Positions 5,977 through 37,595 of a stretch of 64,000 nt of DNA are shown here, piece after piece. The position numbers and the translations under genes are program-made. A model generated the notes under the pieces. The model made no database searches and was not told where the DNA came from. It worked only from the letters and a program-made list of their open reading frames with translations. The DNA lies in sequence record PQ724393.1, one strand, 5' to 3'. The number at the start of each line of letters is the position of its first letter. Positions within the stretch are counted from its first letter, which is position 1. The stretch is from a phage.

Positions 5977-6046
5977 AATAATTTCCTCAGTTTAAAATTT
6001 ATAATCCATGGGACCATTATACTCTGGTCCCAAGAGTTTGTAAACT
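5977..6046 (-). promoter_or_regulatory. Early-type promoter with hairpin around the -10
   Basis: Coding strand GTTTACA-N17-TATAAT; -10 sits in the loop of GGGACCA/TGGTCCC inverted repeat. Confidence 0.5.
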
Positions 6047-6245
6047 ATTTTTGTGCTAATGCACCTTTCCAACCTTCGTACATCGCCGCAGCCGATATTA
6101 ATATTGCTCCTGCGCATTTTGAATATTTGTTATTCCAAAACCAGTTTAGAAAAACTTCGTCATCAATACCTTGGGCTATCATATTTTCAAAGAATTGACG
6201 ACGAGCTTCAGCAACACGTTGTGATAATTTAGATTCAGGATTCAT
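6045..6245 (-). CDS. Hypothetical protein (66 aa)
   Basis: ORF 6045-6293 trimmed to ATG at 6243-6245 directly after the upstream stop. Confidence 0.4.
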   Translation of the reverse strand: MNPESKLSQRVAEARRQFFENMIAQGIDDEVFLNWFWNNKYSKCAGAILISAAAMYEGWKGALAQK

Positions 6246-6246
6246 T

Positions 6247-6378
6247 TTAAATTTTCCAGTTACCGTTTTCATCAATAAATTTAATCCAGTCATTTACTGA
6301 CCACGTGGTTGTATCGCCCTTTGGACTGACATTTAAAGTATACAACCCTTGCTTAAAAAGCATTCGTTTGATATTCAT
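6247..6378 (-). CDS. Hypothetical small protein (43 aa)
   Basis: ATG at 6376-6378 preceded by strong SD GAGGAAAAT; longer ORF-track version overlaps neighbour. Confidence 0.35.
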   Translation of the reverse strand: MNIKRMLFKQGLYTLNVSPKGDTTTWSVNDWIKFIDENGNWKI

Positions 6379-6385
6379 ATTTTCC

Positions 6386-6679
6386 TCAGCTGTAACGATA
6401 ACATTCGTTTGATTTACGTTTTGCAACTTGATGAGAAGTATTGTAATCAGGTTCATCGTCGTTGTAAACATCTTTTTTCAGCTTTCTCACTTCTTTACGA
6501 AGTTGGCGATTCATTTCATTCTTAACTTCAGAATCAACACCACGCATACGTTTCCACTTGTCAGAACGGAAGATATTTTCCTCAACCAGTTCCTGACTTA
6601 CACCGTCGGGCGCTTTACGGCGTCCGGAATAATAAAAATCTTTTACAGACAATTCTTTACGGCGAATAGTTTTACCCAT
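6386..6679 (-). CDS. Hypothetical basic protein (97 aa)
   Basis: ORF; Lys/Arg-rich. Confidence 0.45.
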   Translation of the reverse strand: MGKTIRRKELSVKDFYYSGRRKAPDGVSQELVEENIFRSDKWKRMRGVDSEVKNEMNRQLRKEVRKLKKDVYNDDEPDYNTSHQVAKRKSNECYRYS

Positions 6680-6681
6680 AG

Positions 6682-6936
6682 TTACCTCAGCAGTTTGTAT
6701 CCAATAAGATGTTTAATGTATTGGACATCTTTGACATCCAAATCTAACTTAATATCTTTCAGGCGTTCGGCCAGAGTAAGAAATGTTACGCGTTTCCAAT
6801 TCTTAACAGGGCAACAATAAGTTTTCGGCCCGTTAGCGATTTCAATATTTTTATCTGTGACGGTGATAAAAATCAAACGTTCATCATCGAGATTAAGGGT
6901 GACGACACTTTTGGTTGAATGTAGTTTCAGGCTCAT
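6682..6936 (-). CDS. Hypothetical protein (84 aa)
   Basis: ORF. Confidence 0.45.
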   Translation of the reverse strand: MSLKLHSTKSVVTLNLDDERLIFITVTDKNIEIANGPKTYCCPVKNWKRVTFLTLAERLKDIKLDLDVKDVQYIKHLIGYKLLR

Positions 6937-7115
6937 AATTTAATTTCCTTAGCTATCGAACAAAACAAACTACGGTCACATACCATCAATGGAATATTTC
7001 TATGGTCTAGTACACGATACCATACGTCTGAATCGCTAGCAGCAATTACACGAACCGCACGCCCATTTACCAAATAATACTGGTCGGCTTTAATTTCTTT
7101 ATCTTGGATAGTCAT
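6933..7115 (-). CDS. Hypothetical protein (60 aa)
   Basis: ORF immediately downstream of promoter cassette 7116-7174. Confidence 0.45.
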   Translation of the reverse strand: MTIQDKEIKADQYYLVNGRAVRVIAASDSDVWYRVLDHRNIPLMVCDRSLFCSIAKEIKL

Positions 7116-7174
7116 AATGTTCTCCTCATGTGTTGATAGGATAGACTATAACACGTGAGGAGAGGAAGTAAACA
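7116..7174 (-). promoter_or_regulatory. Early promoter / stem-loop cassette (diverged copy)
   Basis: Coding strand GTTTAC...CTCCTCACGTG...core...CACATGAGGAG(SD)-ATG; stem arms complementary. Confidence 0.45.
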
Positions 7175-7492
7175 CTAATCTTCAATTAAATCTCGGTCAT
7201 AACCAAGTTCAATCAAAAGTGATTTGAAGGTAGGAATATTTTCTATTTTCTTATTATCGACAAATATGACAGGATAGCGTATCGCCAAGCTCTTGAAGCC
7301 TGCACGTTTGGCCAATGATACTATAAGAGGCTTGTCATATACTGCGCCTGACGGCGTCTGGTTAATCACAGGATAGAAAGTATGTGGGATAGAAAGGGAA
7401 TTTAGGAGCGATAGAACAGCAATGCACCCTGGACAGCGCATGACTGTCTCAGGGATACCATAAATCTCAATTTTAGTTAACTTTTGGTCCAC
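7175..7492 (-). CDS. Thioredoxin/glutaredoxin-fold protein with CxxC (CPGC), possibly NrdH-like
   Basis: 105 aa, KIEIYGIP...CPGC near N-terminus, typical of small redoxins. Confidence 0.5.
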   Translation of the reverse strand: MDQKLTKIEIYGIPETVMRCPGCIAVLSLLNSLSIPHTFYPVINQTPSGAVYDKPLIVSLAKRAGFKSLAIRYPVIFVDNKKIENIPTFKSLLIELGYDRDLIED

Positions 7493-7769
7493 AGGAAATA
7501 ACTCCTTGGTAGTCCCAAGTTTTTAGAACTTCGTCTTCATTAGTTCCGTATGGGACGTAAATCTGGATAAGGAACCCAGTATCATCAAAAGAGAAGTAGA
7601 CGGTAGGTTTAATACCGTGAATCTCTGACAGGGCATAGATGTCCTTGAGGTCGTCTTCCTTACCTTTAAAGAATTCAGGGTTCAGGTCACAGTCATGGAA
7701 GTACCAATCATCACCAAACTTGTCCCATGTGGTCCAATTCAAAGCTACATATTCTTCAAAACGTTTCAT
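7473..7769 (-). CDS. Hypothetical protein (98 aa)
   Basis: ORF. Confidence 0.45.
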   Translation of the reverse strand: MKRFEEYVALNWTTWDKFGDDWYFHDCDLNPEFFKGKEDDLKDIYALSEIHGIKPTVYFSFDDTGFLIQIYVPYGTNEDEVLKTWDYQGVISCGPKVN

Positions 7770-8102: not shown

Positions 8103-8576
8103 TCATTTAAGCGATTTCCTCAGTTGTTTTTTAAATGAATCGACCATTTGTTTCTTTGTGTCAGATTCATTATAAGTCATTCCATGTGAAAGCATTTCAG
8201 CAATCATTTCTTCCTTACCTAATCTACTGAACTCTTTGGTTTTATCAGTTACAAAAGTAGGGTGAATAGGATTCTTGGAGCAATCATTCTCGAGGTACGC
8301 AACTAGATTTTTAAGACACTCGAGGTAGTCGTTGCCACGACCTTTAAGACCAGAGCGTACAAATTGGTGTCTGCTGCGTCCTTCCCAGGCGTTACAAAGA
8401 TTACAGAGCAACCCACGAACTCGTCCGGCTTGTAGCCCTTCTAAATCATGAGAGTGGTCTAAGTGGTTACTTTGAACATCCGTATTTAGATGTTGTTTAC
8501 ATACTAAACACAAGCCCTGTTGGTCTTTGTACATCTGTTCTTTTTGTTCTTTATAAAGCTTGCCAGTCAACAACAT
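8103..8576 (-). CDS. 49: Endonuclease VII (Holliday junction resolvase) gp49
   Basis: 157 aa MLLTGKLYKEQ..., Cys motifs CLVC and CNLCN, ...EFSRLGKEEMIAEML...KKQLRKSLK; near-colinear with T4 endo VII. Confidence 0.9.
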   Translation of the reverse strand: MLLTGKLYKEQKEQMYKDQQGLCLVCKQHLNTDVQSNHLDHSHDLEGLQAGRVRGLLCNLCNAWEGRSRHQFVRSGLKGRGNDYLECLKNLVAYLENDCSKNPIHPTFVTDKTKEFSRLGKEEMIAEMLSHGMTYNESDTKKQMVDSFKKQLRKSLK

Positions 8577-8613
8577 AATAAACCCTTACCATTATTAGAT
8601 AAGGGTATTTATT
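8577..8613 (-). promoter_or_regulatory. Late-promoter-like box plus hairpin upstream of gene 49
   Basis: Coding strand AATAAATA then CCCTTA-N11-TAAGGG hairpin containing the SD region; same layout as known for T4 gene 49. Confidence 0.4.
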
Positions 8614-8845
8614 ATTTTTCGAATGTACTATAAAACGAGCGATGTAATCGTTTAAATTGACGCATCATCTTTTTGGTAGGTCGAGTGGACAATCCTACAC
8701 ATGTAGCCATAAACTGGTCAACAGGACTTCCTTTGATAAGAAGTTTCCAGACCTTTGCGCCATTTAATTTTTCAGTATAAATCAGTTCAGTTTTCATAGT
8801 AAAACCCAAACTCCATATCGATGAAATCATTGTTTGAAGGTTCAT
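8612..8845 (-). CDS. Hypothetical protein (77 aa)
   Basis: ORF; weak SD, start uncertain. Confidence 0.35.
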   Translation of the reverse strand: MNLQTMISSIWSLGFTMKTELIYTEKLNGAKVWKLLIKGSPVDQFMATCVGLSTRPTKKMMRQFKRLHRSFYSTFEK

Positions 8846-8919
8846 TATACTCTATTTCGGAATCGTTGTAAACAGGTTCCTCTGGCTCGGTAGTTTTCCA
8901 CCGAGCGACATACCATGGC

Positions 8920-11099: not shown

Positions 11100-11158
11100 G
11101 ATATTCTCCTCAGTAGTTGATAAAAGGATTATACTCCATCCGTCCTTGGATGTAAACA
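11100..11158 (-). promoter_or_regulatory. Early promoter / stem-loop cassette (diverged)
   Basis: GTTTACA -35-like box at 11151-11157, SD GGAG, ATG at 11099. Confidence 0.4.
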
Positions 11159-12232: not shown

Positions 12233-13078
12233 TTAATCCTTAAGAAGATTTAGGATATCGATATATTTCTGGCGTTCAGCCTTAGCTTTGGCATTCAGAC
12301 CAGAGAGTCGGAAAATCTCATCATCTTGTTGTTGAATTGTAACATTCAAGCAAGTAAGCAAATTGCTAAAATACTCGATTTGAGCTTGGTGTTTCTCATT
12401 GCTGCGCACCGGTACAGGTTCCGGTTTAGGAGCTTGTTCTGAAGGCTCTTCAGCCAGGTCTTTAATTTTATAAAGTTTAATACGCTGACCCACTCCAGTT
12501 TCGGCATCACCGAAACTAAGAACACCGTGCTGTTCTAATTCAGACAAGGCCAATCGGAGATGGAACTTCCAGTTGTCGTATTGACACCCACTGTAATGGG
12601 AAATAGTATACTCATTTTCATTTCTGGGGTGGTTAACAATACTAAAGATAATCCAATCACCTGAACCATTAGTCTTAAAGGTCATTTGTTTATCTTGACC
12701 TTTTGCAAGTCGAGCACCAAGAGCCAGTAGACGTCGTTGGTTGGCATGAAGGTCTTGAACAACTTCGTCAAATGACATCGCCGGGATTAAACGACCATAG
12801 AGGTCGTAGCCTTTGTTATAATTTTTAAGAATAATTTTGGCATTAGCACGAGACAACATACCTGTTTTACGAAGAGTTTTCATGACTCGGTCTTCTAACG
12901 TAAACGAACCTTTAGTCTTGTCAAAGATTTTAGTGAAGTCATCTTTAACAGTACAAACGTTGAACTTGTCCCACATCATATATAGAACCTTTTCAACTAC
13001 TTCTTTAGAACTCGGAATACGACCAAATTTAACAACTTTTTTAACTTCAGAACGAATTTGATTAATTGCCTGTGACAT
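12233..13078 (-). CDS. Hypothetical protein (281 aa), N-terminus MSQAI
   Basis: Long ORF; SD GAGGAAATTATT; preceded by TGGTATAATGG extended -10. Confidence 0.55.
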   Translation of the reverse strand: MSQAINQIRSEVKKVVKFGRIPSSKEVVEKVLYMMWDKFNVCTVKDDFTKIFDKTKGSFTLEDRVMKTLRKTGMLSRANAKIILKNYNKGYDLYGRLIPAMSFDEVVQDLHANQRRLLALGARLAKGQDKQMTFKTNGSGDWIIFSIVNHPRNENEYTISHYSGCQYDNWKFHLRLALSELEQHGVLSFGDAETGVGQRIKLYKIKDLAEEPSEQAPKPEPVPVRSNEKHQAQIEYFSNLLTCLNVTIQQQDDEIFRLSGLNAKAKAERQKYIDILNLLKD

Positions 13079-13141
13079 AATAATTTCCTCAGTAAGTAAT
13101 TAAGAACCTAGAACCATTATACCATCCTTGGTATAAAGCGT
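13079..13141 (-). promoter_or_regulatory. Candidate promoter (extended -10; possible MotA-type middle promoter)
   Basis: Coding strand CGCTTTA (near MotA box TGCTTTA) 12 nt upstream of TGGTATAAT. Confidence 0.35.
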
Positions 13142-13666: not shown

Positions 13667-13722
13667 GATAACCTCCAGTAGTTGATAGGTCTATAGTATC
13701 ATTTCTACTGGAGATGTAAACA
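13667..13722 (-). promoter_or_regulatory. Early promoter / stem-loop cassette
   Basis: GTTTACA-N17-TACTAT; stem CTCCAGTAG/CTACTGGAG with compensatory change relative to copy at 23430; SD GGAG in 3' arm. Confidence 0.55.
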
Positions 13723-15056: not shown

Positions 15057-15124
15057 TATATTCTCCGTTTCACTCAGTAGATTTGATAGGTCCATAATAA
15101 CATGCTCTACGAGGTTGTAAACAC
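15057..15124 (-). promoter_or_regulatory. Early promoter / stem-loop cassette
   Basis: GTTTACA at 15116-15122 on coding strand, conserved core, SD, ATG 15056. Confidence 0.5.
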
Positions 15125-15140
15125 TTTTTTGCACTAAACC

Positions 15141-15163
15141 CAAAAAAGGACCCCGAAGGGTCC
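15141..15163 (-). terminator. Rho-independent terminator (minus strand)
   Basis: GGACCC-CGAA-GGGTCC hairpin at 15148-15163 followed on the minus strand by a U6 run. Confidence 0.7.
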
Positions 15164-15387
15164 TAAATTGCGCTCCAATAATTATGGAAGCGGATATTAT
15201 TGATAGCCCAGTTAATACAACGTCTTATCTGCTTAGTCGTAGGCTTGCATACGTACTTGAAATTGATTCTTCTACCGGTTTCTCTACAAACTACTTCAAG
15301 ATACCAACGACAGGTTTTATGAGGTCTTCCATATGACAGGAAAACCTTGATTTCTTCTTTAACGGTAATAAGAGTTGTGGTTGTCAA
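15163..15387 (-). CDS. Hypothetical Cys/Arg-rich small protein (74 aa), doubtful
   Basis: ORF with TTG start, overlaps 3' end of upstream gene and the terminator. Confidence 0.25.
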   Translation of the reverse strand: MTTTTLITVKEEIKVFLSYGRPHKTCRWYLEVVCRETGRRINFKYVCKPTTKQIRRCINWAINNIRFHNYWSAI

Positions 15388-16369
15388 GATACACCTCTTC
15401 GACGAACTTGTCCCAGAACTTCATGTCCACCTTCGCAGGCATACCGTTCTTAGCAGCCCAGATGGCATTGGTTTCGACTTCGTCTACAATAGCTTCAAGT
15501 TCGGCCTGCACATCTTTAAAAGCATGTAACCCCTGTTTGATTTCAAGGATAAATGGCGCAGTACGTAAAGGGTATTGAAGGTCACCAGTTTGATAGATTT
15601 CCTTCAACTGGTATCCGGCCCTATAAGCATGACTCAGAGCTTTCCAGTCAATACCTTCATTGGCTTCTGCCTTACGAGCACGTTCACCATATTCGGCGTC
15701 AAGCTTATTCAGAGATTGCTTGAGCTCGATTAATGACAAAGTAGTCTGATATTTACGTCCGAGAACAGTATAGAACGTTTGTGGGCCTGTTTTCTCATGG
15801 TTATGGAATACCCATTCACAGAATTCGTTTTCAGGGAGCCGATGTTTGATATCTTCTACCTTAGTGCGACGAAGACGGTCCGGAATTCCTTCTTGATAAT
15901 CAACCCATTGTTCAGGAATCTGGTTGACTATTGCCAATACACCACGCAGAGCAGCCAGTCGAGAACCTTTAACACCATATTTGGAAGCTTGCTTGCGGAC
16001 ATACCCTAAATAGGCTTTCATGTTGGTTGTATAGAACCGTGAACGGTTGTCTTGGATAAATTTCCATACGTCAGGTAAATCGGATTTGACAACCAGGTCA
16101 GCCGGTGTGTGAATCATGTCCAGGGCAACGGTTTCGCCATCGGCTGCCAGTTTAAAGAAATATTTCAGACTATAAAGTTCATGGTCAACATCATCTTTTG
16201 TATTTTTGGTAGCCGTGTTATTCGTGTTCAGGTTTGTATGGTTCATAGCCGTACCTAACAGAATATCACGCGGATGTGGAACAAAGATTTCTTTAAAATC
16301 GATATCAGATTCCGGAGTACTTGTTCCATAAAGGTGGGAGCCAAAATATCCCTTCATAACTGTTCTCAT
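15359..16369 (-). CDS. Nucleotidyltransferase-fold protein (336 aa)
   Basis: N-terminal GSHLYGTSTPESDIDF fits the Pol-beta NTase signature GS-x(9-13)-DxD. Confidence 0.55.
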   Translation of the reverse strand: MRTVMKGYFGSHLYGTSTPESDIDFKEIFVPHPRDILLGTAMNHTNLNTNNTATKNTKDDVDHELYSLKYFFKLAADGETVALDMIHTPADLVVKSDLPDVWKFIQDNRSRFYTTNMKAYLGYVRKQASKYGVKGSRLAALRGVLAIVNQIPEQWVDYQEGIPDRLRRTKVEDIKHRLPENEFCEWVFHNHEKTGPQTFYTVLGRKYQTTLSLIELKQSLNKLDAEYGERARKAEANEGIDWKALSHAYRAGYQLKEIYQTGDLQYPLRTAPFILEIKQGLHAFKDVQAELEAIVDEVETNAIWAAKNGMPAKVDMKFWDKFVEEVYLDNHNSYYR

Positions 16370-17133
16370 TATTCACCTCTTTCATAGTCTTCAATAAATT
16401 GCATAATTAAACGTTGATAGTTGGATTTGGGATATCCTAATTTACTAATATAGGTTCCGAAAGCTCCACGCTTAGGCCTATTTAATTTAACCCATAAAGA
16501 ATAAAGCAAATCATAATCTTGCCAATGTTTCCCTATTCTTTGCTTTGCTTTAGAAGCATCAGATTGCCTCTTTTTAGTCTCTGGATTATTTAGAGATTTC
16601 TTAACAGCATTCGAATGCCTTTCTCTAACATCAGGGCGTTTAAATGCTTCTTTAATAGCTTTAGAAATTTTCTCTTTAACTTCAGGACGGTTTTGAGCTT
16701 CTATTTGAGCCGCCGACATTTTATCTTTTATTTCTGGTAGACTCATAGTTATAGAACGTTTATTTCTATATTCTTCAGTCTTCCATATTTCTTTCATCGT
16801 ATTTGAGTGAATTTCTGAAAATTTTTCTCTAACTAATTGATACCCTCTAGAAGTTAGTTTAAGATTTCTTCCTAAAGAATCCTCGCCAAAGTTATAAAAT
16901 GACCACCAGGCATAAATTAATCCTGAAGAATCAGAATGAATTCTAGCTAGAAGCCAGTGTGCTATAAAATGTTCTCTAGCTGTCAACAGAACCAAATTAT
17001 TAGGTTCATCACTCCCGCCAATACATGACGGGATTATATGATGGGACTCTGTATAAAAATTTAATTTGGATTTGTCTAATCCTCTAAGTTTACCTCTTTG
17101 GATTAGACTATCATAAAGCTTGGTATAATTCAT
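16369..17133 (-). mobile_element. HNH homing endonuclease (Mob/Seg-like), free-standing mobile gene
   Basis: HHIIPSCIGGSDEPNNLVLLTAREHFIAHW HNH motif, C-terminal repeated basic DNA-binding motifs, AT-rich sequence; start at ATG 17131-17133. Confidence 0.65.
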
Positions 17134-17591
17134 TATGGATTTGTTTTGTCCTCGAAGTGGATTACAGGACACATCTTAGATTTACGAGCTTTAATGTATT
17201 GAATAACGATATTTTCTTTAGTTTCTCGGCCTTCACGCTCAGCTTGAATACGTTGCCATTCCTTTTCTTCTCTACGGGCATCATACCATGCGTGTAAATT
17301 CATCGCACCAAATGCCAAACCGATGGATAGTGCAATAATAAGAGCTATTACAATCAACCCTAAAACAAACCCTAGACTCAACAGAACAGGAGTACTTAAT
17401 ACAAAGAAATGCTCTAATACACCAGCTCCTGCAACAGTTAATCCAAAAAGCGTACTACCTGCAACAACAGCACAAGCAAAACAAGCCCAAATCATTTTCC
17501 AGAAATATGCACATAAAGAGTGTGGTCGAGAATGGCTGTCATAAAAACGGTCGTGTAATTTAACGTGCCAAGAGTTTGAATTGATAATCAT
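17133..17591 (-). CDS. Hypothetical polytopic membrane protein (152 aa)
   Basis: Several hydrophobic helices. Confidence 0.5.
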   Translation of the reverse strand: MIINSNSWHVKLHDRFYDSHSRPHSLCAYFWKMIWACFACAVVAGSTLFGLTVAGAGVLEHFFVLSTPVLLSLGFVLGLIVIALIIALSIGLAFGAMNLHAWYDARREEKEWQRIQAEREGRETKENIVIQYIKARKSKMCPVIHFEDKTNP

Positions 17592-17601
17592 AATATTTTC
17601 C

Positions 17602-18162
17602 TTAAGAGTTCATAGTTGGGATAACAGAGTTCAGATAAGAGACTAAAGCCTTAAGCTCGTCCTTAGTAAATACCACTTCATTTTCACCGTCATGTCTTTG
17701 GACAATGGACAACAAATCACGACCCTGATGTTGATACACGGATAATTCGGTATCATAATCCAGTTCTTCTTCATCACCTTCAAATGTTTCACTAGAACGA
17801 ATTACAGCATCTTGTCCAGGGACTTTCCATTCAACTTCTGGCTTGCATTCTTCCTGGAAGAGTTTGAAAATACATTTAAAGAAATTACTAGAATCGCTAA
17901 TGCTTAGGCATTCCGTATCAGTTTCGATATTAAACCCGTTGTCATGGTTATAAATCTGGGCCCACATATCATCATTAATATCAAATACACCTCTAAAACT
18001 ACCATTAAGATATTCGTGTTTGTCCAAAACCTTTAAATCGTAAAGTGGTTTGATATCTTGGATAGTCAGTACGATTTTATCGTCTTCTTGTGAAAGCACA
18101 ATTGCATTATCAACTACTTCAGCGGTCAGGTCACCAAACAGCCCAGATGTTTCAATAATCAT
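17602..18162 (-). CDS. Hypothetical acidic protein (186 aa)
   Basis: ORF; Asp/Glu-rich. Confidence 0.5.
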   Translation of the reverse strand: MIIETSGLFGDLTAEVVDNAIVLSQEDDKIVLTIQDIKPLYDLKVLDKHEYLNGSFRGVFDINDDMWAQIYNHDNGFNIETDTECLSISDSSNFFKCIFKLFQEECKPEVEWKVPGQDAVIRSSETFEGDEEELDYDTELSVYQHQGRDLLSIVQRHDGENEVVFTKDELKALVSYLNSVIPTMNS

Positions 18163-18625: not shown

Positions 18626-18675
18626 GCCCAGGGTTCTAAGTAATAAATCATCTCATACTCCTGTGCCATCAGCCA

Positions 18676-19192: not shown

Positions 19193-19197
19193 TTTGA

Positions 19198-20232: not shown

Positions 20233-20239
20233 AGTACCC

Positions 20240-24946: not shown

Positions 24947-25306
24947 TTAAAGATGGTCGAGTGCCGGATTATGAGGCTTTTCTGCTTTAGCAGTATTTTT
25001 GTGCCAATCCGATTTAGAAACACGAATTGCATCCGCACCGTAAGAGCTCTTAAGGAGGCCCTTTTTATTGTAAACACTTATAGAAGTAAGGGTGTCACCA
25101 TTCCAAGTAGCATGGACGAAGTTGGATTTAGATTTAAGTTCTTTAGCCAGGCTCTGGTTGGTAGCCATAGAAGCAAAGTCTTTACCTGTAACTTTAAAAA
25201 CTTCAGATGGGTTCAGCCCTTCTTTAGCCTTAGCCAATTGTTCAGGAGACATAGCTTCGTTAATGCGCTGAGTAGATTCAGTAATAAATTGTTGGTAAGT
25301 TTTCAT
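24947..25306 (-). CDS. Internal-protein-like head protein with capsid targeting sequence (119 aa)
   Basis: N-terminus MKTYQQFITE-S matches the T4 IP capsid targeting sequence ([10 protein letters not shown], prohead protease cleavage after Glu of [IL]-x-E). Confidence 0.6.
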   Translation of the reverse strand: MKTYQQFITESTQRINEAMSPEQLAKAKEGLNPSEVFKVTGKDFASMATNQSLAKELKSKSNFVHATWNGDTLTSISVYNKKGLLKSSYGADAIRVSKSDWHKNTAKAEKPHNPALDHL

Positions 25307-25348
25307 ATTATTCCTTAAGTTGATAGAAGTATTCTACCACGGATTTAA

Positions 25349-25765
25349 TTAAGCGTAAATAGCCTTGCCATAGTGTTTGTACCAGGTAGGACGTTGTGCA
25401 ATTTTTTCATCCAAACGGGTTTGTGAAATAGCGATAGAAGCTTCGTGAGGAGCATAATCACCACGGAATTCCTGAGGAATATCACTAATGTCCTGGACCG
25501 TAGTATCTTTGATATTAAAGCCACGTTTTAAACATTCGGCTATAAGCTCGATTTGACGCTTACGTAAAAATTCAAGCTTATCGTAAAAGAATGTAACATG
25601 GCCTGCGCCAAGGATAAAAGTAGGACTGATTTTGAAATCACGGACACGTTTACCATTAGCAACATGCTTACGAACTGCACCGAAAACACGTGGTAATTCA
25701 CGATATTCAGCCATTAAGTGTTGGTCAGCCAATTCAGATACTAAGGTAAGGTTGATACGAGTCAT
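25349..25765 (-). CDS. denV: Endonuclease V (pyrimidine dimer DNA glycosylase) DenV
   Basis: 138 aa [41 protein letters not shown]...; essentially matches T4 endonuclease V as I recall it. Confidence 0.9.
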
Positions 25766-25822
25766 TTTTAATCTCCTGTAGTTGATAGGTCTATAGTATC
25801 ATGTCTACAGGAGATGTAAACA
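25766..25822 (-). promoter_or_regulatory. Early promoter / stem-loop cassette
   Basis: Identical to 23430-23486 copy over ~55 nt; immediately upstream of denV ATG. Confidence 0.6.
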
Positions 25823-26442: not shown

Positions 26443-26525
26443 ACGGGTTCCTTAAAGGTAAATATTTTAATTAGTCTGTTCAATTAACTGTAGATATACT
26501 ATCACAATTCTAGGAGATGTAAACT
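26443..26525 (-). promoter_or_regulatory. Early promoter-like cassette (diverged)
   Basis: GTTTACATCTCCTAG...TAGTAT on coding strand, SD AAGGAA before ATG 26442. Confidence 0.45.
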
Positions 26526-28317: not shown

Positions 28318-29003
28318 TACCAGCCCTCCATAGGAAATTCCAGATATACTTGAGCATTAACGCGGATTTCATTTGTAATCTTTTTAACACGGTCGGTATT
28401 ACGAGACACACGACCAAACCAGCGCCACCCGTTACTTACTGCACGAGAACCTGTATGCCATGTTTGCCAATCAAACTGGAGTAACGTGCGGTCAGGAGCA
28501 TCCCACTTGGTTAATTCATTGGACTCAATTTTTTCCAGAACTTCTTTATGCCACTGGCGATAGATAAGTTCGCCTTCAGGAATCTGACTGAACTGTGCAG
28601 TTCCGGTTGCAAAATGAGTAGGACACACATCAGCATTAACAAGACCAAGAATATGTTCAGAATGGTATCGAGGATTATCATAATCAGGTTGCCCTGCGGT
28701 AATAAAGTGTTGACCCACCGGAATATCTGGACGTGGTACATCATCATGGTGGAAGCCTGGAATTGCAGGGTACCAGCCGGGCATTAACATGTGTACACGG
28801 GAATCAAATACGCATTCAACGGCTTTCCACTCATCAGGGAGATTAGTAATAAAGCTACGAGTAATAGGACCACCATTTTGTGCAGCAAAATTCAAATCAC
28901 AGTTAAAGAACATAGGCTCGTTTTTAATATCATCATTAGAAATATGACCTGCAAAACCACCTACTGCACGAGCTTTAGAATTAAAAGTTTTTGGACCGTT
29001 CAT
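28317..29003 (-). CDS. Hypothetical protein (228 aa) with HHDD metal-site-like motif
   Basis: PGWYPAIPGFHHDD followed by downstream His residues; possible metal-dependent enzyme, unverified. Confidence 0.5.
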   Translation of the reverse strand: MNGPKTFNSKARAVGGFAGHISNDDIKNEPMFFNCDLNFAAQNGGPITRSFITNLPDEWKAVECVFDSRVHMLMPGWYPAIPGFHHDDVPRPDIPVGQHFITAGQPDYDNPRYHSEHILGLVNADVCPTHFATGTAQFSQIPEGELIYRQWHKEVLEKIESNELTKWDAPDRTLLQFDWQTWHTGSRAVSNGWRWFGRVSRNTDRVKKITNEIRVNAQVYLEFPMEGW

Positions 29004-29017
29004 AATATTTTCCTCAC

Positions 29018-29230: not shown

Positions 29231-29297
29231 TTTATTCTCCATTTCACTCTGTTGTTTTGATAGGTCTATAGTATCACACCTATAGACCTTGTACACT
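29231..29297 (-). promoter_or_regulatory. Early promoter / stem-loop cassette (variant -35 GTGTACA)
   Basis: Conserved core ttgataggtctatagtatca; stem GGTCTATAG/CTATAGACC. Confidence 0.45.
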
Positions 29298-29308: not shown

Positions 29309-30268
29309 TTATTTTTCGAAAGGACGAATTAAATGATGGTTATCTTGGAAACGCTTGATGTAGTCGTTTTCACCTAAAGTCTTATACATATTCACTACAG
29401 CTTGGTAGTTTTCCCAGGCGTACTCGCGGAACCAACCTGAAGTGATTGAGGTACACACTTTCTCAAGAGCCATATAAAAACTTAATGATGGTGAAATATT
29501 GAAGTCATTAGGAACCTGTGAACGTTCTAGTGCCAGGACACAAGTTTCTTCATATACACCAGCCAGTTTAATAGCTTCGGGCAAAGCCTCGAACTTCTCA
29601 CGAGAGGTCATGACTTCAGAACCTTCCTTCATATAAAAGGTATATGCAGGGCGTCCAGCCAATGCTACTGCTTCATGAATAGAGTCATGGTCCAGCGTAT
29701 AAATGGTATCATTAAAGAACGATGATTTGTTTACGTCCAATTTAGGGTGAGAATAGCTCAACGTTTCTTTTTGACGTTGCAACATAATTTCCCGGAGTTC
29801 TTCGTTCAGGGTGATACCTTTATTACGAAGGTATTTGATGTGGGACATAGTTTTCAAGAAGAACGGATTATTCTTCAGGAAACGATGAGAGGTTTTGATA
29901 GCCAGACAGATATCAGGCGTTGCCCAATAGAAACCAGTAAGACGGTCCTTTTTAATATGATTTTCAGCATATTTCAGGAGACGATAACTTGAAGTGAAAT
30001 CTTCGTCTTGAAGCTCGCCAGTAATTTCTCGTACGTTAGTCAGAGCACGGACAATATAAGCTTCAAAATAGGTTTCTTTACCATTGTACATACATTTAAA
30101 GGCCTGGACATCAGGATTATCCACAGGAACATGAGCGCCGAACATCCGGGCTTTAAAGTGATTCCATGAGCCTTGGTCGGCAATGAAATCCCAATCAGAA
30201 TTTTCGATATGCTTACTTTCAATCAGACCAGCGTGGTGCAGTGCACGAGAACCAATAACTAGCATCAT
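29309..30268 (-). CDS. Hypothetical protein (319 aa) with possible nucleotidyltransferase-like N-terminus
   Basis: LVIGSRALHHAG...SDWDFIA loosely fits GS...DxD; weak. Confidence 0.5.
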   Translation of the reverse strand: MMLVIGSRALHHAGLIESKHIENSDWDFIADQGSWNHFKARMFGAHVPVDNPDVQAFKCMYNGKETYFEAYIVRALTNVREITGELQDEDFTSSYRLLKYAENHIKKDRLTGFYWATPDICLAIKTSHRFLKNNPFFLKTMSHIKYLRNKGITLNEELREIMLQRQKETLSYSHPKLDVNKSSFFNDTIYTLDHDSIHEAVALAGRPAYTFYMKEGSEVMTSREKFEALPEAIKLAGVYEETCVLALERSQVPNDFNISPSLSFYMALEKVCTSITSGWFREYAWENYQAVVNMYKTLGENDYIKRFQDNHHLIRPFEK

Positions 30269-30281
30269 AATATTTTCCTCA

Positions 30282-30449
30282 TTAATAAAGACGAGTTACT
30301 TCATATTTACCCAGTTCAGATTTTTTTGCTTCAATACGCGTTGCGGCTAGATTAGCAGCCTCTAGTGAAGAAAATTGGACCACTTGGGAAGTATTCTGCC
30401 TTACGCCACCTTGTGGGTGAGTAACAAAAACAATAAGAACATTATACAT
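30282..30449 (-). CDS. Hypothetical small protein (55 aa)
   Basis: ATG with strong SD GAGGAAAATATT; below ORF-track cutoff. Confidence 0.3.
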   Translation of the reverse strand: MYNVLIVFVTHPQGGVRQNTSQVVQFSSLEAANLAATRIEAKKSELGKYEVTRLY

Positions 30450-30470
30450 AATATTTTCCTCAGAGTAAAC

Positions 30471-30710
30471 TTAAATTTCAGCAACGTAATCGTTATGCAA
30501 TTCCCACATATCATCAGAATTATTCTTAATGATAGGAATTATCTCATTAGAGATTTCTTCTGCATAAGGGTCATTGATACAGTGGGCATCTTCAAAACGA
30601 ACACCGTAATCAGACTTCTTATAGGCAAAGCCATAAATCTTTTTAAACTTGGCACGACTAATTCGTACCGGCTCATCAGACTTATCAGACAATGGAGAGT
30701 AATACCACAT
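30471..30710 (-). CDS. Hypothetical protein (79 aa)
   Basis: ORF. Confidence 0.45.
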   Translation of the reverse strand: MWYYSPLSDKSDEPVRISRAKFKKIYGFAYKKSDYGVRFEDAHCINDPYAEEISNEIIPIIKNNSDDMWELHNDYVAEI

Positions 30711-30753
30711 ATGTTCTCCTCATGTTTGTGTAGGGTAATAGTAACATGATTTT

Positions 30754-31083
30754 CTAGAGTTGTACATCACTTCTGCAATATTCTAAAAATAATTTATCGT
30801 TGTCTACGGTATCCCAACGACGCCAAGATGGGTTCCAGACCAAAGCGTTGTCACCACAATCATTGAGCTTAAAATGGTCGTAGTACATAGCTATATGTCT
30901 GGTTTCGTCACCAGAGAACCCTAGTATAGGCTCACCATGAGTATGATACATATGATGGTGCATTGAGAGGTCGCATTTGTAAAACATCTCACGTTTACCA
31001 CGAATGAACAAGAAAGCTTGACCATTCATATAGAATTCTTTATCTGTTTTCAAAAGATATTTGAATACCGAATCTTTATGCAT
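30754..31083 (-). CDS. Hypothetical His-rich protein (109 aa)
   Basis: Start at ATG 31081-31083 with SD AGGAGGA; HHHMYHTH cluster. Confidence 0.45.
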   Translation of the reverse strand: MHKDSVFKYLLKTDKEFYMNGQAFLFIRGKREMFYKCDLSMHHHMYHTHGEPILGFSGDETRHIAMYYDHFKLNDCGDNALVWNPSWRRWDTVDNDKLFLEYCRSDVQL

Positions 31084-31113
31084 AAGTCCTCCTACCACAT
31101 CCTTGTGGTTAAA

Positions 31114-31341
31114 TTATTTTCCTAACGAAACACGAGTAGGTTTTTTACCAAAATAGTCTTCATAAGACCCATCTAAACGACCTGCTTTAGACCGACAATA
31201 TGAATCGTACTTTTTGTAATAAGTCATCTCGGTATTATAACGCGGGTGTCTATCAGCCATAATAATACTTAACGGCCAACCTTTGGCATAATCGCGAAGA
31301 CCATTTATTTTACGAATGTATCTTTTCTTTAATTTTAGCAT
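31114..31341 (-). CDS. Hypothetical basic protein (75 aa)
   Basis: ORF; start overlaps stop of paralog 1. Confidence 0.4.
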   Translation of the reverse strand: MLKLKKRYIRKINGLRDYAKGWPLSIIMADRHPRYNTEMTYYKKYDSYCRSKAGRLDGSYEDYFGKKPTRVSLGK

Positions 31342-31559
31342 GAGCTCGGATACCAGATTTTACCATCAGAACGAGCAACGAAGGTTCGGCCGGCTTCTTC
31401 GCCGTAACAAGAGCTATTCAGCCAATCTTCAAGACGAACTTCACCATCATAATCATCAAGCTCAACACCAAAATCTTGTGCAGAAGCCATATCTTTTACT
31501 TTCTTATACAGCGCAGCCAGTTCAAGAGCAGCTTTTTCTAATTCATTAATATCAGACAT
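31335..31559 (-). CDS. Small protein paralog 1 of 5 (C-terminal ...WYPSSC)
   Basis: 74 aa; N-terminal helix EKAALELAALYKK; shares C-terminal W-x-x-S-S-x-C with four upstream neighbours. Confidence 0.5.
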   Translation of the reverse strand: MSDINELEKAALELAALYKKVKDMASAQDFGVELDDYDGEVRLEDWLNSSCYGEEAGRTFVARSDGKIWYPSSC

Positions 31560-31568
31560 TTTATTTCC

Positions 31569-31799
31569 TTAGCAAGACATAGAGGAGTTAAACCAGAAAC
31601 CCTGGCCATCATTGATACCGTAATCACTGCGAATCCAGTCATATTCTTCGTATTCTTCGCTAGAAGCCGGAATATAACGCTGGAAACGGTCTGCGGCGTG
31701 TAAATTAAAAATTTCGCCGGTTTTATCGGCCAGCTGCTCACCTTCACAGATTAGTGCACGGATTTGGTCTTCGATTTCTTTAACAGTTTTAGAAGTCAT
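31569..31799 (-). CDS. Small protein paralog 2 of 5 (C-terminal ...FWFNSSMSC)
   Basis: 76 aa; TAAGG stop/SD junction to next gene. Confidence 0.5.
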   Translation of the reverse strand: MTSKTVKEIEDQIRALICEGEQLADKTGEIFNLHAADRFQRYIPASSEEYEEYDWIRSDYGINDGQGFWFNSSMSC

Positions 31800-31808
31800 T
31801 TTATTACC

Positions 31809-32006
31809 TTAGCATTCGTAAGAGGAGGACACCCAAGAGGTACCACTAATTGTAATACAACCATTATAAAGCGTGATATGACGTTCCAGGTCACGAACAC
31901 CGTCGATATAGATATCAGCTTCTTCGCGTTCTTCTTTACAAATCTGGATAACGTTTTCAATAGCTGCGGCTGCAGTACGGATTGCACAATCTAGTTCACG
32001 AGACAT
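31809..32006 (-). CDS. Small protein paralog 3 of 5 (C-terminal ...SWVSSSYEC)
   Basis: 65 aa. Confidence 0.5.
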   Translation of the reverse strand: MSRELDCAIRTAAAAIENVIQICKEEREEADIYIDGVRDLERHITLYNGCITISGTSWVSSSYEC

Positions 32007-34118: not shown

Positions 34119-34192
34119 AGTATTTCCTTCAGTTGGTTAACGTTTTGTAATCCATGAGGACATTATACCCTGTCCTCTGAGGGATGTAAACA
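34119..34192 (-). promoter_or_regulatory. Early promoter with hairpin flanking -10
   Basis: Coding strand GTTTACA-N17/18-TATAAT; GAGGAC/GTCCTC inverted repeat brackets the -10. Confidence 0.55.
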
Positions 34193-34592: not shown

Positions 34593-34648
34593 TATGATCT
34601 CCTCAAATTATGGGCTCATAATATCTTAATCATGGGCCCATGTAAACG
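34593..34648 (-). promoter_or_regulatory. Early promoter-like element with palindrome
   Basis: GTTTACA-N17-TATTAT; palindrome ATGGGCCCAT and partner TGAGCCCA flank the -10; SD GAGGAG. Confidence 0.45.
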
Positions 34649-34650: not shown

Positions 34651-34914
34651 TTATTTCATATTATTGAAATAATCTTCCGCATCAAAATCGTTATCATGAT
34701 AAACTTTGGTAGACAATTTAACATAACCTTCGGCGGCGAACATATTAACCACAACCTTTACAGTATACCATTGTCCATCATCATTACCCATTACTGCATA
34801 GGTTTCAAATATGGGATGGTCATCACCGATAACTTTAATATCGTTAACTGTAGCACCAAATTCTTCAGGAACGCATTTCATAAAGAAATTAAACAATTCA
34901 CCATAATTATCCAT
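34651..34914 (-). CDS. Hypothetical protein (87 aa)
   Basis: Start at ATG 34912-34914 with SD GGAGAG. Confidence 0.45.
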   Translation of the reverse strand: MDNYGELFNFFMKCVPEEFGATVNDIKVIGDDHPIFETYAVMGNDDGQWYTVKVVVNMFAAEGYVKLSTKVYHDNDFDAEDYFNNMK

Positions 34915-34979
34915 TTTACTCTCCTTCACACTGTTGTTTTGATAGGTCTATAGTATCATGTTCTACGAAAGAGTAAACA
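34915..34979 (-). promoter_or_regulatory. Early promoter / stem-loop cassette
   Basis: GTTTAC box at 34973-34978, conserved core ttgataggtctatagtatca. Confidence 0.5.
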
Positions 34980-35001: not shown

Positions 35002-35030
35002 CAAAAAAGGCCCAACCTTTCGGAAGGGCC
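35002..35030 (-). terminator. Rho-independent terminator (minus strand)
   Basis: GC-rich hairpin GGCCC...GGGCC with CCGAAAGG core followed on minus strand by U6. Confidence 0.6.
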
Positions 35031-35823: not shown

Positions 35824-36062
35824 TCAAAAACGCTACTCGGCTTACGGCAAAGATATTTCCTCGAATCGATAATTAGGTGCGCCGTTTCTGCTGTGATGTA
35901 AGGGGACATTAACAGATCGTAAAGATTTGTTAATGCCAGTCCTTACTCAGGGAACATCAGTCCGACGACTTACCGGTAGCGACCCGGTTTCTTGTTTGTT
36001 GCGCCGGTGAATGCTGGTAATCAGTCTTCATACGACGGCTTGACTATATAATAGTCTTCATT

Positions 36063-36137
36063 TGGTATCCCGCCCTGGGATCGAACCAGGACCGCAAACT
36101 TAGAAGGATCGTATGCTATCCATTACACCAGCGGGAC
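36063..36137 (-). tRNA. tRNA-Arg (anticodon UCU)
   Basis: Minus-strand GTCCCGC...CCTTCTAAG...GGTTCGATCCCAGG-GCGGGAT-A-CCA; anticodon loop CUUCUAA, T-loop, encoded CCA. Confidence 0.75.
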
Positions 36138-36142
36138 ATAGT

Positions 36143-36219
36143 TGGTGACCCGGACCAGATTTGAACTGGTAACCTTTCCCTTATGAGGGGACTGCTGCTA
36201 ACCATTGAGCTACAGGGCC
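36143..36219 (-). tRNA. tRNA with CAU anticodon (Ile2-type or Met)
   Basis: GGCCCTG...anticodon loop CUCAUAA...AGTTCAAATCTGGT-CCGGGTC-A-CCA; T4 encodes a tRNA-Ile at the corresponding position. Confidence 0.7.
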
Positions 36220-36224
36220 TTAAT

Positions 36225-36491
36225 TTAAATTACAAATCCAGCAGGGGCATTATCATCTTTAGCCATGTGCTGAATTGTATGATAAGTCATTTCTTCAGGA
36301 GCAACCAGATAAGCCGCAACGTTAACTAGTGGAATTATTTTTGGTTTAGCGAACGTGCTATCAGAAATTGCCATAAAGGGCTCGCCGTCGGTCTCAACTT
36401 CGCCAAATTGGCACTCGTAAGAAATAGAACAACGTTTGGTGGTGGTTGTCTTGGTTTTAGGGTCATAAAAAGCTAATTTTAATACTAACAT
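36225..36491 (-). CDS. Hypothetical protein (88 aa)
   Basis: ORF directly downstream of tRNA cluster. Confidence 0.45.
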   Translation of the reverse strand: MLVLKLAFYDPKTKTTTTKRCSISYECQFGEVETDGEPFMAISDSTFAKPKIIPLVNVAAYLVAPEEMTYHTIQHMAKDDNAPAGFVI

Positions 36492-36669
36492 AATACCTCA
36501 AATAAAATTAAGTAAAGTAAGTTTGATTAATAGACCTTGTCTATTATGAAAGGCTCTTTGAGGGAAGAACCTTTGGTAATAGAGGGTTACTTAATAATGT
36601 TAGAGTAATAATATCACATTACTCTTAAAGCATATTACTATTTTTAGGAATAGTCTGGTCAAATTTGAT

Positions 36670-36960
36670 TCATTGTGGCCACATATTAATGTAATCAAGT
36701 TTAATAGAAGCAATCTTCAAAGGATTTTTAAAGATGTCGTATTCGACCAATCCATTTTCAGTTGCAGTATAAAAAGTAAAATTAACAGAATTATAACGAT
36801 GACTGTTAACTTTGAGTTTAACGTCGCTTGAACTACGGCCAATATTAACCTGTTGAACATCAAGCACGGCATCTTTGCCAAAGTTGCGAATCAGTAGCTC
36901 TGCTGCAACCTGGTCCGAATTATAGCCATTCTCTGGATTAGTAACTTTAACGTATAGCAT
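36670..36960 (-). CDS. Hypothetical protein (96 aa)
   Basis: ORF. Confidence 0.45.
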   Translation of the reverse strand: MLYVKVTNPENGYNSDQVAAELLIRNFGKDAVLDVQQVNIGRSSSDVKLKVNSHRYNSVNFTFYTATENGLVEYDIFKNPLKIASIKLDYINMWPQ

Positions 36961-37341
36961 TTAACCCTCGTCTACAATAGTGTGGGTATTGGCATTAACA
37001 ATCTGCCACCAGTCAAAACGATTGGAACCATAACAAGGCTTATTCTCGTTTTCTTTAATGATATCGCGCAGTTCATCTTCAGTCGCTGCCTTTGCGATTA
37101 AGTCAGCATAACCGCCACGAGGATAATAGTTATCACCGGCAAAGAGCAAAAAGTTTGTTTTGATATTCTTGAATTCTTCAAGAGTAATAACTGTTCCGCC
37201 AGGTTGAACAATATCTATATAACTATATCCTAATTTCTGTGCTTCATTTACCGCTTCGAGCAGGGTGTCGTGTGCCCACCCAATTTGGCAATCTGGTTTT
37301 TCAGATGGATTTGCTTGATAATCCGCATACACTTTATACAT
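36961..37341 (-). CDS. Hypothetical protein (126 aa)
   Basis: Start at MYKVYADYQ (ATG 37339-37341). Confidence 0.45.
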   Translation of the reverse strand: MYKVYADYQANPSEKPDCQIGWAHDTLLEAVNEAQKLGYSYIDIVQPGGTVITLEEFKNIKTNFLLFAGDNYYPRGGYADLIAKAATEDELRDIIKENENKPCYGSNRFDWWQIVNANTHTIVDEG

Positions 37342-37342
37342 T

Positions 37343-37528
37343 TTACTCACCTTTAGAGATTTTATCCATAACGAAAGAAATTGAACCAATTAAGAATGCC
37401 ACTACTAAAGAAATTATATTCTCGGAAGTTGAAAGCATATCGAGCATGAATCCTGCAAACATACTAAAGCCGAAAGCAGTAACAGCGGCCAGTGCAGTAA
37501 CATTTCTAATTAATTCACAACGTTTCAT
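37343..37528 (-). CDS. Hypothetical small membrane protein (61 aa)
   Basis: Start ATG 37526-37528 with SD GGAGAATAAA; hydrophobic. Confidence 0.4.
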   Translation of the reverse strand: MKRCELIRNVTALAAVTAFGFSMFAGFMLDMLSTSENIISLVVAFLIGSISFVMDKISKGE

Positions 37529-37595
37529 TTTATTCTCCAATCACTCATTTGTTTTGATAGGGCTATAGTATCACCACTAAAGCCCGTTGTAAACA
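37529..37595 (-). promoter_or_regulatory. Early promoter / stem-loop cassette
   Basis: GTTTACA at 37588-37594; core ttgatagggctatagtatca; 5'UTR shared with the copy at 29231. Confidence 0.5.

Follow-up and report, generated by a model that had tools for sequence, protein, structure and literature searches.

The 64,000-nucleotide (nt) stretch of phage sequence record PQ724393.1 analysed here, hereafter the window, carries a recurrent short cassette at gene boundaries that combines an early-type promoter, a stem-loop and the translation start of the following gene. The window is Dhakavirus DNA, from a T4-type phage like JS98 and JS10: a 13.6-kb piece of it matches 958 phage records, the best of them Dhakavirus (JS98/JS10-like T4-type coliphages), with fDHCT2 as the closest relative at 97.8% identity and the remaining Dhakavirus at about 92–93%. 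Mapping of JS10 proteins recovered the T4 gene order 46, 47, 55, 49, nrdC, tk, vs, regB, denV, ipIII, e, tRNAs, 57B, 1, 3, 2, 4. Genes 46 to 4 all lie on the minus strand, from position 1 to about 41,250, with plus-strand baseplate genes thereafter, and the repeats sit in the classic early/middle 'hyperplastic' part of the T4-type genome. A first-pass annotation had listed 14 copies of the cassette and described the genes behind them as mostly small open reading frames (ORFs) of unknown function. The genes downstream of these 14 sites are 55.2, 55.6, nrdC.4, nrdC.8, nrdC.10, a 78-aa ORF, regB, denV, ipIII, JS10_0119, e.6, an e.7-like gene, an e.8-like ORF and trna.4; most are conserved T4 orthologs (regB, denV, ipIII, nrdC.x, 55.x, e.6, trna.4) and not orphans of an accessory kind, contrary to that description.

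The sequence features assigned to the 14 intervals are all present. Each has (G)TTTAC(A/T), a 16–17-nt spacer, TAnnnT and a Shine–Dalgarno (SD) sequence on the minus strand upstream of a gene, GTTTAC is perfect at 12 of the 14, and a start codon at the low-coordinate edge of every interval confirms the location at gene boundaries. A search of the window for GTTTAC-N15-19-TAnnnT returned 17 matches compared with 4.73 ± 2.07 in shuffled sequence, a number reached by none of 100 shuffles; 16 of the 17 fall on the minus strand between 6016 and 37594, the strand and region of the early genes, and the late region has none. The cassettes are also among the top scores of an independent sigma-70 scan. 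Generic scans showed no overall enrichment in the window of promoter-like sites (72 vs 59.9 and 63 vs 59.9) or terminator-like sites (18 vs 13.7 and 12 vs 13.4), and are informative for their top-scoring sites only. No Rfam family covers these elements. Overlooked in the first-pass annotation were a cassette at 25307–25361, intragenic sites at 6440–6469 and 8844–8873, and a doubtful one at 30441–30470. The 14 original sites together with 25307–25361 make up the 15 intergenic cassettes considered below. They are given here with z-scores from folding of the segment between the −35 and the ATG, the 'core' being the 20-mer TGATACTATAGACCTATCAA.

5977–6046, minus strand: cassette before 55.2; −35 at 6044–6039, −10 TATAAT at 6021–6016, predicted +1 at 6009, ATG at 5976; −10 flanked by the hairpin GGGACC/GGTCCC, SD free (z=−2.7; own duplex −16.5 kcal/mol, rank 1 of 17).
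7116–7174, minus strand: cassette before 55.6; 5′ arm TCTCCTCACGTGT in the spacer (7163–7151), 3′ arm ACACATGAGGAGA (7133–7121) including the SD.
11100–11158, minus strand: cassette before nrdC.4; −10 TATAAT, anti-SD TCCTT right after the −10 and upstream of the predicted +1 (ATCAAC).
13667–13722, minus strand: cassette before nrdC.8; exact core, arms TCTCCAGTAG (13714–13705) and CTACTGGAGG (13681–13672); z=−4.3.
15057–15124, minus strand: cassette before nrdC.10; core with three mismatches, weak internal stem, canonical terminator upstream.
19100–19157, minus strand: cassette before the 78-aa ORF (18863–19099, GTG start); exact core, canonical terminator upstream.
23430–23486, minus strand: cassette before regB; exact core, arms TCTCCTGTAG (23478–23469) and CTACAGGAGA (23445–23436); z=−5.3.
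25307–25361, minus strand: cassette before an internal-protein-like ORF (24947–25306); ATTTACG-N17-TAGAAT, predicted +1 at ATCAAC.
25766–25822, minus strand: cassette before denV; exact core, arms TCTCCTGTAG (25814–25805) and CTACAGGAGA (25781–25772); z=−6.3.
26443–26525, minus strand: cassette before ipIII; −10 TAGTAT, 47-nt leader, GTTTACATCTCCT in common with the denV cassette and the place of the crossover that deleted ipIII in dhabil and Bp7.
29231–29297, minus strand: cassette before the JS10_0119 homolog; −35 GTGTAC, exact core; z=−3.7.
34119–34192, minus strand: cassette before e.6; 55.2 subfamily, hairpin GAGGAC/GTCCTC flanks the −10.
34593–34648, minus strand: cassette before the e.7-like gene (JS10_0131); −10 flanked by the hairpin ATGGGC/GCCCAT; z=−3.0, own duplex rank 1.
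34915–34979, minus strand: cassette before the 87-aa e.8-like ORF (34651–34914); exact core, weak internal stem, terminator upstream.
37529–37595, minus strand: cassette before trna.4; core with one mismatch (AGCCC), hairpin GGGCT.TAG/CTATAGCCC.

The conserved core on which the idea of a single repeat was founded is real in 8 of the 14 copies. In the window the 20-mer occurs exactly six times, once with one mismatch and once with three, where none is expected. The other six copies (55.2, 55.6, nrdC.4, ipIII, e.6 and e.7-like) have different −10 contexts, and the 14 copies are at least three subfamilies, not one repeat; 55.2 and e.6 fall together in one of these, with TATAAT-G.TCC.CATGGATTA in common. 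The copies before regB and denV, put earlier at about 55 identical nucleotides, are indeed identical, over a measured 53 nt from GTTTAC to GATTA. The leaders at 29231 and 37529 are similar (~85%) rather than identical, contrary to the reading that they share a whole 5′ untranslated region.

The order of parts within the module is an A-rich UP-like tract, the −35 GTTTAC(A), the 16–17-nt spacer, a TGn-extended −10 (TACTAT/TATAAT), the predicted start, the leader, the SD and the ATG. In 9 of the 15 intergenic cassettes a stop codon of the upstream gene lies at most 5 nt from the −35, so that the entire intergenic gap is the cassette. A makes up 48% of the upstream 14 nt compared with 32% of the background. 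Ten of the 15 have a TGn before the −10; 14 of the 15 have an A 7 nt past the −10, and in 10 the predicted RNA start reads ATCAA. Leaders are 18–47 nt long, and the SD is GGAG in 11 of the 15.

These features recall the T4 early promoter class with UP, −35 GTTTAC, TGn and −10 parts, which Wilkens and Rueger, and Miller 2003, are said to have described. We scanned the homologous 42 kb of T4, whose RefSeq record annotates no promoters, by the same motif rule, the T4 matches being those of our own scan, and found matches before 55.6, 55.4 (in 55.5), pin (in 49.1), nrdC.4, nrdC.8, nrdC.10, regB, denV, ipII, ipIII, e.6, e.7, e.8, trna.4 and ipI. The motif precedes the same gene at 10 of our 14 sites (55.6, nrdC.4, nrdC.8, nrdC.10, regB, denV, ipIII, e.6, e.7-like and trna.4), which supports the original assignment to T4-type early promoters; for the orf92 site, position and the relatives' annotation alone support a pairing with T4 e.8. 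The window's denV cassette hardly differs from that of T4, GTTTACATCTCCTGTAGGTATGATACTATAGACCTATCAACTACAGGAGAA. Cassettes and T4 early promoters have the same hexamers, spacing, TGn, A-rich upstream tract and conserved +1 region CTATCAAC. Thus, in the sequence and position features tested, the cassettes are those of T4-type early promoters, which are UP/−35/TGn/−10 promoters with additional consensus regions (Hinton 2010, PMC2988021) and have been predicted in other T4-like genomes (PMC1524935). Two differences stand out: TGATACTATAGACCTATCAA is homogenised to 8–12 exact copies per Dhakavirus genome, against one in the T4 region examined, and at regB the Dhakavirus cassette has been replaced by a copy of the denV-type cassette. 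Two of the T4 matches correspond to the intragenic sites, which are listed here with the doubtful one.

6440–6469, minus strand: intragenic promoter-like site in 55.5, upstream of 55.4; T4 motif match at the orthologous place (T4 41261), with 87% core identity to T4.
8844–8873, minus strand: intragenic promoter-like site in 49.1; T4 motif match at the orthologous place (T4 47452); relatives have a 155–454-base-pair (bp) insertion at its 3′ edge.
30441–30470: doubtful promoter-like site.

The cassettes also fit the published description of promoter early stem-loop (PeSL) elements, as had been proposed for them, and the architecture that defines a PeSL is present: an upstream stop in an A-rich tract, −35, spacer, TGn/−10, a stem-loop overlapping the −10, SD and ATG (PMC2839356). 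In PeSLs the stem-loop most frequently lies between −35 and −10 or overlaps the −10 (Arbiol 2010, PMC2839356), and PeSL-like sequences were already noted in JS98 (Arbiol 2010, PMC2839356; Comeau 2014, PMC4122927). As in PeSLs, the composite fills the intergenic gap, follows an upstream stop in an AT-rich tract and occupies plastic early regions; in individual cases gene indels among relatives have crossovers inside cassettes. The PeSLs of RB49 and phi1, however, have TTGACA promoters and Gn-loop-Cn stems described as terminators, and those of T4 and PST have stems drawn upstream of the promoter, whereas the stems of the window are AT-richer, lack U-tracts and straddle the −10, and one-third of the cassettes have the SD for their 3′ arm. 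Also unlike PeSLs, the cassettes show no significant excess of breakpoints over ordinary gene junctions in our comparison.

A stem-loop had been named as part of the cassette but given no location; it is present and spans the −10 hexamer. Folding from the −35 to the ATG gave strong structure in nine cassettes (z −2.1 to −6.3), with the helix spanning the −10 in each. Three layouts can be distinguished. In the first, the spacer pairs with the SD region (55.6, nrdC.8, regB and denV); the 55.6 cassette folds with a free energy (dG) of −21.1 and z=−6.0, and the nrdC.8 helix is a compensatory variant of the regB/denV helix. In the second, bases just after the −10 pair with the SD (nrdC.4, TCCTT/GAGGA). 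In the third, the spacer finds its partner in bases that flank or overlap the −10, and the SD stays free (55.2, e.6, e.7-like, 0119 and trna.4), as in the 10-bp hairpin AGGTCTATAG/CTATAGACCT that overlaps the −10 before the JS10_0119 homolog. Pairing in the 19100 cassette is limited to a short CCTC/GAGG. Strong internal stems are absent from all three cassettes that have a canonical terminator upstream and present in 9 of the 12 other intergenic cassettes. The marks of an intrinsic terminator (GC-rich stem, short loop, U-run) come together only in these separate hairpins upstream of 15057, 19100 and 34915, the last read directly from the sequence since a bulge made the consensus scanner miss it.

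15147–15164, minus strand: intrinsic-terminator-like hairpin and T-run just upstream of the nrdC.10 cassette; seven pairs, five of them GC, tail TTTTTGGG.
19170–19195, minus strand: intrinsic-terminator-like hairpin and T-run upstream of the 19100 cassette; 11 pairs, tail TTTTCGTTT.
35003–35030, minus strand: terminator-looking hairpin upstream of the 34915 cassette, GGCCCTTCCGAAAGGTTGGGCC and then TTTTTTG.

The complementarity of the arms exceeds chance. A duplex of −13.9 kcal/mol or stronger occurs in 9 of 17 cassettes, and spacers pair better with their own downstream regions than with those of other cassettes, both in the window (−12.0 vs −8.2 kcal/mol) and in T4 (−11.8 vs −7.0 kcal/mol), differences matched in neither case by any of 20,000 permutations. 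We also collected denV upstream regions from T4-like viral contigs. Across the 37 distinct sequences, the untranscribed part of the promoter pairs with its own leader at −14.65 kcal/mol and with the others at −9.26 kcal/mol (0 of 20,000 permutations). In every T4-type denV sequence GGAG lies within the 3′ arm, in some together with the AUG, and the 5′ arm ends before the predicted +1, while the arms themselves are diverse among phages (CTCCTGTAG/CTACAGGAG, TCCTCCAAG/CTTGGAGGA, CTCCGTTTG/CAAACGGAG, CTCCTGTG/CACAGGAG, TTCTCCTGTAGATG/CATCTACAGGAGAA). In another denV group the −10 hexamer plus 6–7 bases pairs with the SD plus AUG (TATGATGTCCTCC/GGAGGACACTATG). RNAalifold, run on 17 SD-masking cassettes aligned with MAFFT, predicted no pairs because that alignment put the arms out of register, and we replaced it with an explicit gapless helix alignment. 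In this alignment, which was registered by hand for maximal pairing and is biased towards structure, 89% of cells pair and 6 of the 10 pairs show compensatory change; cells with double changes on the helix number 31 compared with 11.5 ± 2.5 in shuffles (0 of 500), and the covariation score is 0.479 compared with at most 0.156 in slid registers. Compensation is also seen within the genus: the e.7-like arms ATGGGC/GCCCAT of the window are ACGGGC/GCCCGT in dhabil, and at trna.4 the core change AGACC to AGCCC is offset by GGTCT to GGGCT in the spacer. The upstream regions of regB in other T4-like phages have −10-spanning hairpins too, of unrelated sequence. A single-protein search with nrdC.8 found close relatives only and added no covariation.

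In all cases the 5′ arm lies upstream of the predicted start, in the spacer or in the 5–7 bases past the −10, so the hairpin would form only in RNA reading through from upstream promoters, or in DNA. In predictions for 55.6, nrdC.4, nrdC.8, regB and denV, the unpaired probability of the SD falls from 0.26–0.48 in the RNA of the cassette's own promoter to 0.00–0.01 in read-through RNA (0.42 to 0.00 at 55.6; 0.48 to 0.01 at nrdC.4). For the other cassettes the prediction is unchanged between the two RNAs. By prediction and covariation, these five cassettes and all T4-type denV orthologs would thus have a promoter inside a hairpin, and we infer that their SD is masked only in read-through RNA.

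We interpret the cassettes as sigma-70 early promoters fused with the translation start of the next gene, five of which would have a masked ribosome-binding site in read-through RNA and which occasionally recombine with one another, a reading we hold to be likely. Since the gap between genes is often nothing but promoter, the inverted repeat is laid over the promoter itself. RNA begun at the cassette would lack the 5′ arm; its ribosome-binding site would be open, and it could be translated at once and become accessible to RegB later. Read-through RNA would have both arms and so a masked ribosome-binding site at 55.6, nrdC.4, nrdC.8, regB and denV, and would carry an intergenic hairpin at 55.2, e.6, e.7-like, 0119 and trna.4; three cassettes would use a conventional upstream terminator instead of a strong internal stem. 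Translation of each gene would in this way be tied to its own early promoter, and the SD would be exposed to RegB in the own-promoter transcript only. RNA structure is known to protect GGAG from RegB (PMC3014915). The GGAG of the 11 cassettes resembles the RegB/S1 site GG*AGRAYARAA (Durand 2006; PMC3014915), as predicted sites only, and GGAGRAYARAA, the consensus, is matched exactly just twice in the window, both times by a cassette SD (29230, JS10_0119; 37528, trna.4), with three further cassette SDs one mismatch away.

A precedent is found in four T4 genes, e, soc, 49 and I-TevI, whose translation start is sequestered by a hairpin with a late promoter inside it (McPheeters 1986, reviewed in PMC3014915). 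There, as proposed for the cassettes, the SD or AUG is paired in the long read-through RNA, and the RNA of the internal promoter lacks the 5′ arm and is translated. The known cases, however, are late promoters (TATAAATA) that delay expression, whereas the internal promoters of the window are of the early sigma-70 type; an early logic would restrict translation to the immediate-early transcript, and the cassette arrangement is widespread rather than gene-specific. By this analogy, masking would extend the e/soc/49/I-TevI principle to early promoters. We found no description of the SD-masking layout at early promoters in the searchable literature, in a search not reaching Miller 2003 or Repoila 1994, and its novelty is tentative.

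Several observations weigh against masking as the general function of the cassettes. The masking claim is built on thermodynamic prediction, its +1 positions were predicted from spacing alone, and the helix alignment has the bias given above. The SD is masked in only 5 of the 15 cassettes; five hairpins leave it free, and masking does not explain their role, while the ipIII and 25307 cassettes lack both a strong stem and an upstream terminator. The mismatches in the helices (G-T vs A-C, 9 vs 4) do not separate RNA from DNA structure, and window-wide the RegB consensus is not enriched (11 vs 10.5 expected).

The hairpins could instead be attenuators, terminators or 3′-end stabilisers for upstream transcripts, their pairing with the SD being incidental and no translational switch existing, an explanation to which we give a limited chance. 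Arbiol et al. proposed this role for PeSL stem-loops, and that of phi1 cut downstream lacZ expression about as strongly as rrnB T1 did (PMC2839356). The five hairpins that do not touch the SD (55.2, e.6, e.7-like, 0119 and trna.4) fit it, and so does the distribution of strong stems, none of three in terminator-preceded cassettes and nine of 12 elsewhere, which suggests alternative ways of handling upstream transcription. For the SD-sparing hairpins we consider attenuation or stabilisation of RNA ends, by analogy with the role proposed for PeSLs (PMC2839356), the better explanation. As an account of all the stems it meets difficulties: neither the sequence nor the terminator scans gave a U-tract after any internal promoter-spanning stem, the loops of 8–27 nt are atypical of intrinsic terminators, and the 3′ arm of the T4-type denV helix is precisely the SD with the 5′ arm before the +1, a layout that a plain attenuator does not need.

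For the recombination part of our reading, we compared the window with JS10, fDHCT2, PSD9, Bp7 and dhabil, which yielded 58 distinct indel or replacement breakpoints. Thirteen of the 58 lie at most 25 nt from a cassette, where 5.4% are expected at random positions (p=1e-5), but the excess does not distinguish cassettes from other gene boundaries: 9 of 15 cassette junctions and 34 of 81 others have a breakpoint (Fisher p=0.16), and 10 of 19 junctions with spacers of at least 30 nt do so as well (p=0.47). In this five-relative sample, rearrangements favour gene boundaries in general. In the tk.2/0100/tk.3 region (20822–21613, minus strand), a run of ORFs of about 60–70 aa, clean indels of some 200 bp distinguish the relatives; they fall at junctions where stop and start overlap and no promoter cassette is present, so that gene-sized indels occur at ordinary junctions too.

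Individual events nevertheless end inside cassettes. In dhabil and Bp7, which lack ipIII, the join lies within GTTTACATCTCC, common to the ipIII and denV cassettes. JS10 lacks the e.8-like ORF, and there a junction at GGAGA joins the e.7-like gene to the upstream promoter. Upstream of nrdC.10, JS10 and PSD9 have an extra ORF between two identical nrdC.10-type GTGTACATCTGCTTTAAACATGTTATTATAGACCTATCA cassettes (JS10 20057–20433), and dhabil has a different gene behind its 19100-type cassette. The nrdC.8 cassette of JS10 (18667–18722) is chimeric, combining the 5′ arm CTCCATTAG of another cassette with the nrdC.8 3′ arm CTACTGGAG, and has lost its pairing. In fDHCT2 the denV cassette (~29545–29603) is of a different type, with TATAGT followed by GTTCTC...GGAGAAC and the anti-SD directly after the −10; it arrived together with an ipII gene, a whole-cassette replacement at a conserved gene. 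The 25307 cassette is kept in JS10, fDHCT2 and PSD9. Exchange at cassettes, as the first-pass annotation proposed, thus appears real from these junction sequences, in the sense that specific gains and losses end within them, but not in significant excess over other junctions. Calling the cassettes mobile was an overstatement: most are positionally conserved regulatory sites that do not travel with ORFs.

The spread of the core gives a similar picture. The exact 20-mer has 75 copies in the viral collection, 8–12 per Dhakavirus genome and always on one strand, and 1–2 in other T4-like contigs; about 70 of the 75, as flagged by script, are accompanied by a −35-like motif and by an SD with a start codon. 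The core at 8 of 13 sites is nearer to a paralog in the same genome than to its T4 ortholog, and that of regB is 100% identical to window paralogs and 61% identical to T4 regB. Spread and paralog similarity together point to homogenisation within the lineage. Modules with 20–55 nt in common can recombine homologously, and we envision that such recombination would occasionally delete, insert or swap the genes in between and homogenise the cassettes of a lineage. Because the JS10 nrdC.8 hybrid loses its pairing, cassettes would be exchanged whole.

It is unlikely, in our judgement, that the similarity of the copies merely reflects selection for an optimal promoter and leader, by convergence or conservation, with recombination of cassettes playing no real part in gene shuffling. 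Such selection would account for the T4 motif at 10 of 14 sites, for the lack of a significant excess of rearrangement at cassette junctions, and for the extended consensus known from T4 early promoters (PMC2988021). It does not sit well with the identity of regB and denV over 53 nt including variable arm positions, where the T4 regB helix differs, with the hybrid arms and lost pairing of JS10 nrdC.8, with deletion endpoints inside common cassette sequence, or with an exact 20-mer expanded in one lineage.

Less probable still is an action of the inverted repeats as DNA, in which a cruciform or single-strand hairpin signals to a nuclease or recombinase (endonuclease VII, or a site-specific system) that moves genes as mini-circles. 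Inverse polymerase chain reaction on RB49 and phi1 revealed PeSL mini-circles whose crossovers lay within or close to the stem-loop (PMC2839356); at the DNA level, too, the arms form inverted repeats, and the mismatch count is not decisive. Here, however, crossovers fall in common direct repeats (−35/ATCTCC or SD) rather than in loop or stem, the consistent SD in the 3′ arm points to RNA, and the arms differ among cassettes and so offer no common recognition site. A transposon or miniature inverted-repeat transposable element is ruled out by the lack of terminal repeats and target duplications and by the positional conservation of most copies with T4.

Other features of the region were noted in passing. 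A 16-nt translation start region, TGAGGAAAATATTATG, is repeated as a second module, with six copies at no more than one mismatch (0.01 expected), on the minus strand at 5974–5989, 13076–13091, 17589–17604, 29001–29016, 30266–30281 and 30447–30462. They stand at gene starts mostly without a promoter cassette, and a 55-aa ORF (30282–30449) is bracketed by two of them, as though insertion had duplicated the start region; that their A/U-rich context resembles RegA operators is speculation. A 267-aa ORF (16369–17172, minus strand) fills a 771-bp segment missing from all five Dhakavirus relatives and occupies the place of the T4 homing endonuclease gene mobD; its match to HNH is weak (E=0.004, short of the Pfam cutoff), and the ORF probably represents the insertion of a MobD-like homing endonuclease. 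Gene 49 (endonuclease VII; 8103–8576, minus strand) is just 75% identical to the JS10 protein, and PSD9 and Bp7 have the 8122–8591 segment swapped for an unrelated stretch of about 1.08 kb. In the same two phages a different 1.3-kb block replaces the 1.7-kb block of small ORFs at 30285–32001, whose left breakpoint lies 17 nt upstream of the JS10_0120 homolog's ATG. Around the tRNAs (35.0–36.6 kb) several indels distinguish the relatives: the window has tRNA-Arg(TCT) and tRNA-Met(CAT) only (36063–36219, minus strand), and JS10 and dhabil add a tRNA-Asn between the two.

Taken together, the repeats are the expected regulatory elements of a T4-type phage, useful mainly for annotating early transcription units, and the co-varying anti-SD arm embedded in the promoter is the one lead worth following. 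It offers a testable rule, namely that the promoter spacer is not neutral but is half of an RNA helix whose partner is the ribosome-binding site or the bases flanking the −10, and a practical design principle for compact, insulated expression modules. If confirmed, it would explain how early transcripts that overlap come to be divided into translated and untranslated ones, why certain GGAG sites between genes withstand RegB, and why cassettes must move as whole units. It is conceivable, though we would not expect it on present evidence, that anti-SD arms in early promoters form a general T4-like switch, open in own-promoter RNA and both closed and shielded from RegB in polycistronic read-through. 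With such a switch, if true, many immediate-early genes would have their translation tied to the short period in which early promoters are active; it would also explain why promoter spacers, normally free to drift, co-evolve with their leaders.

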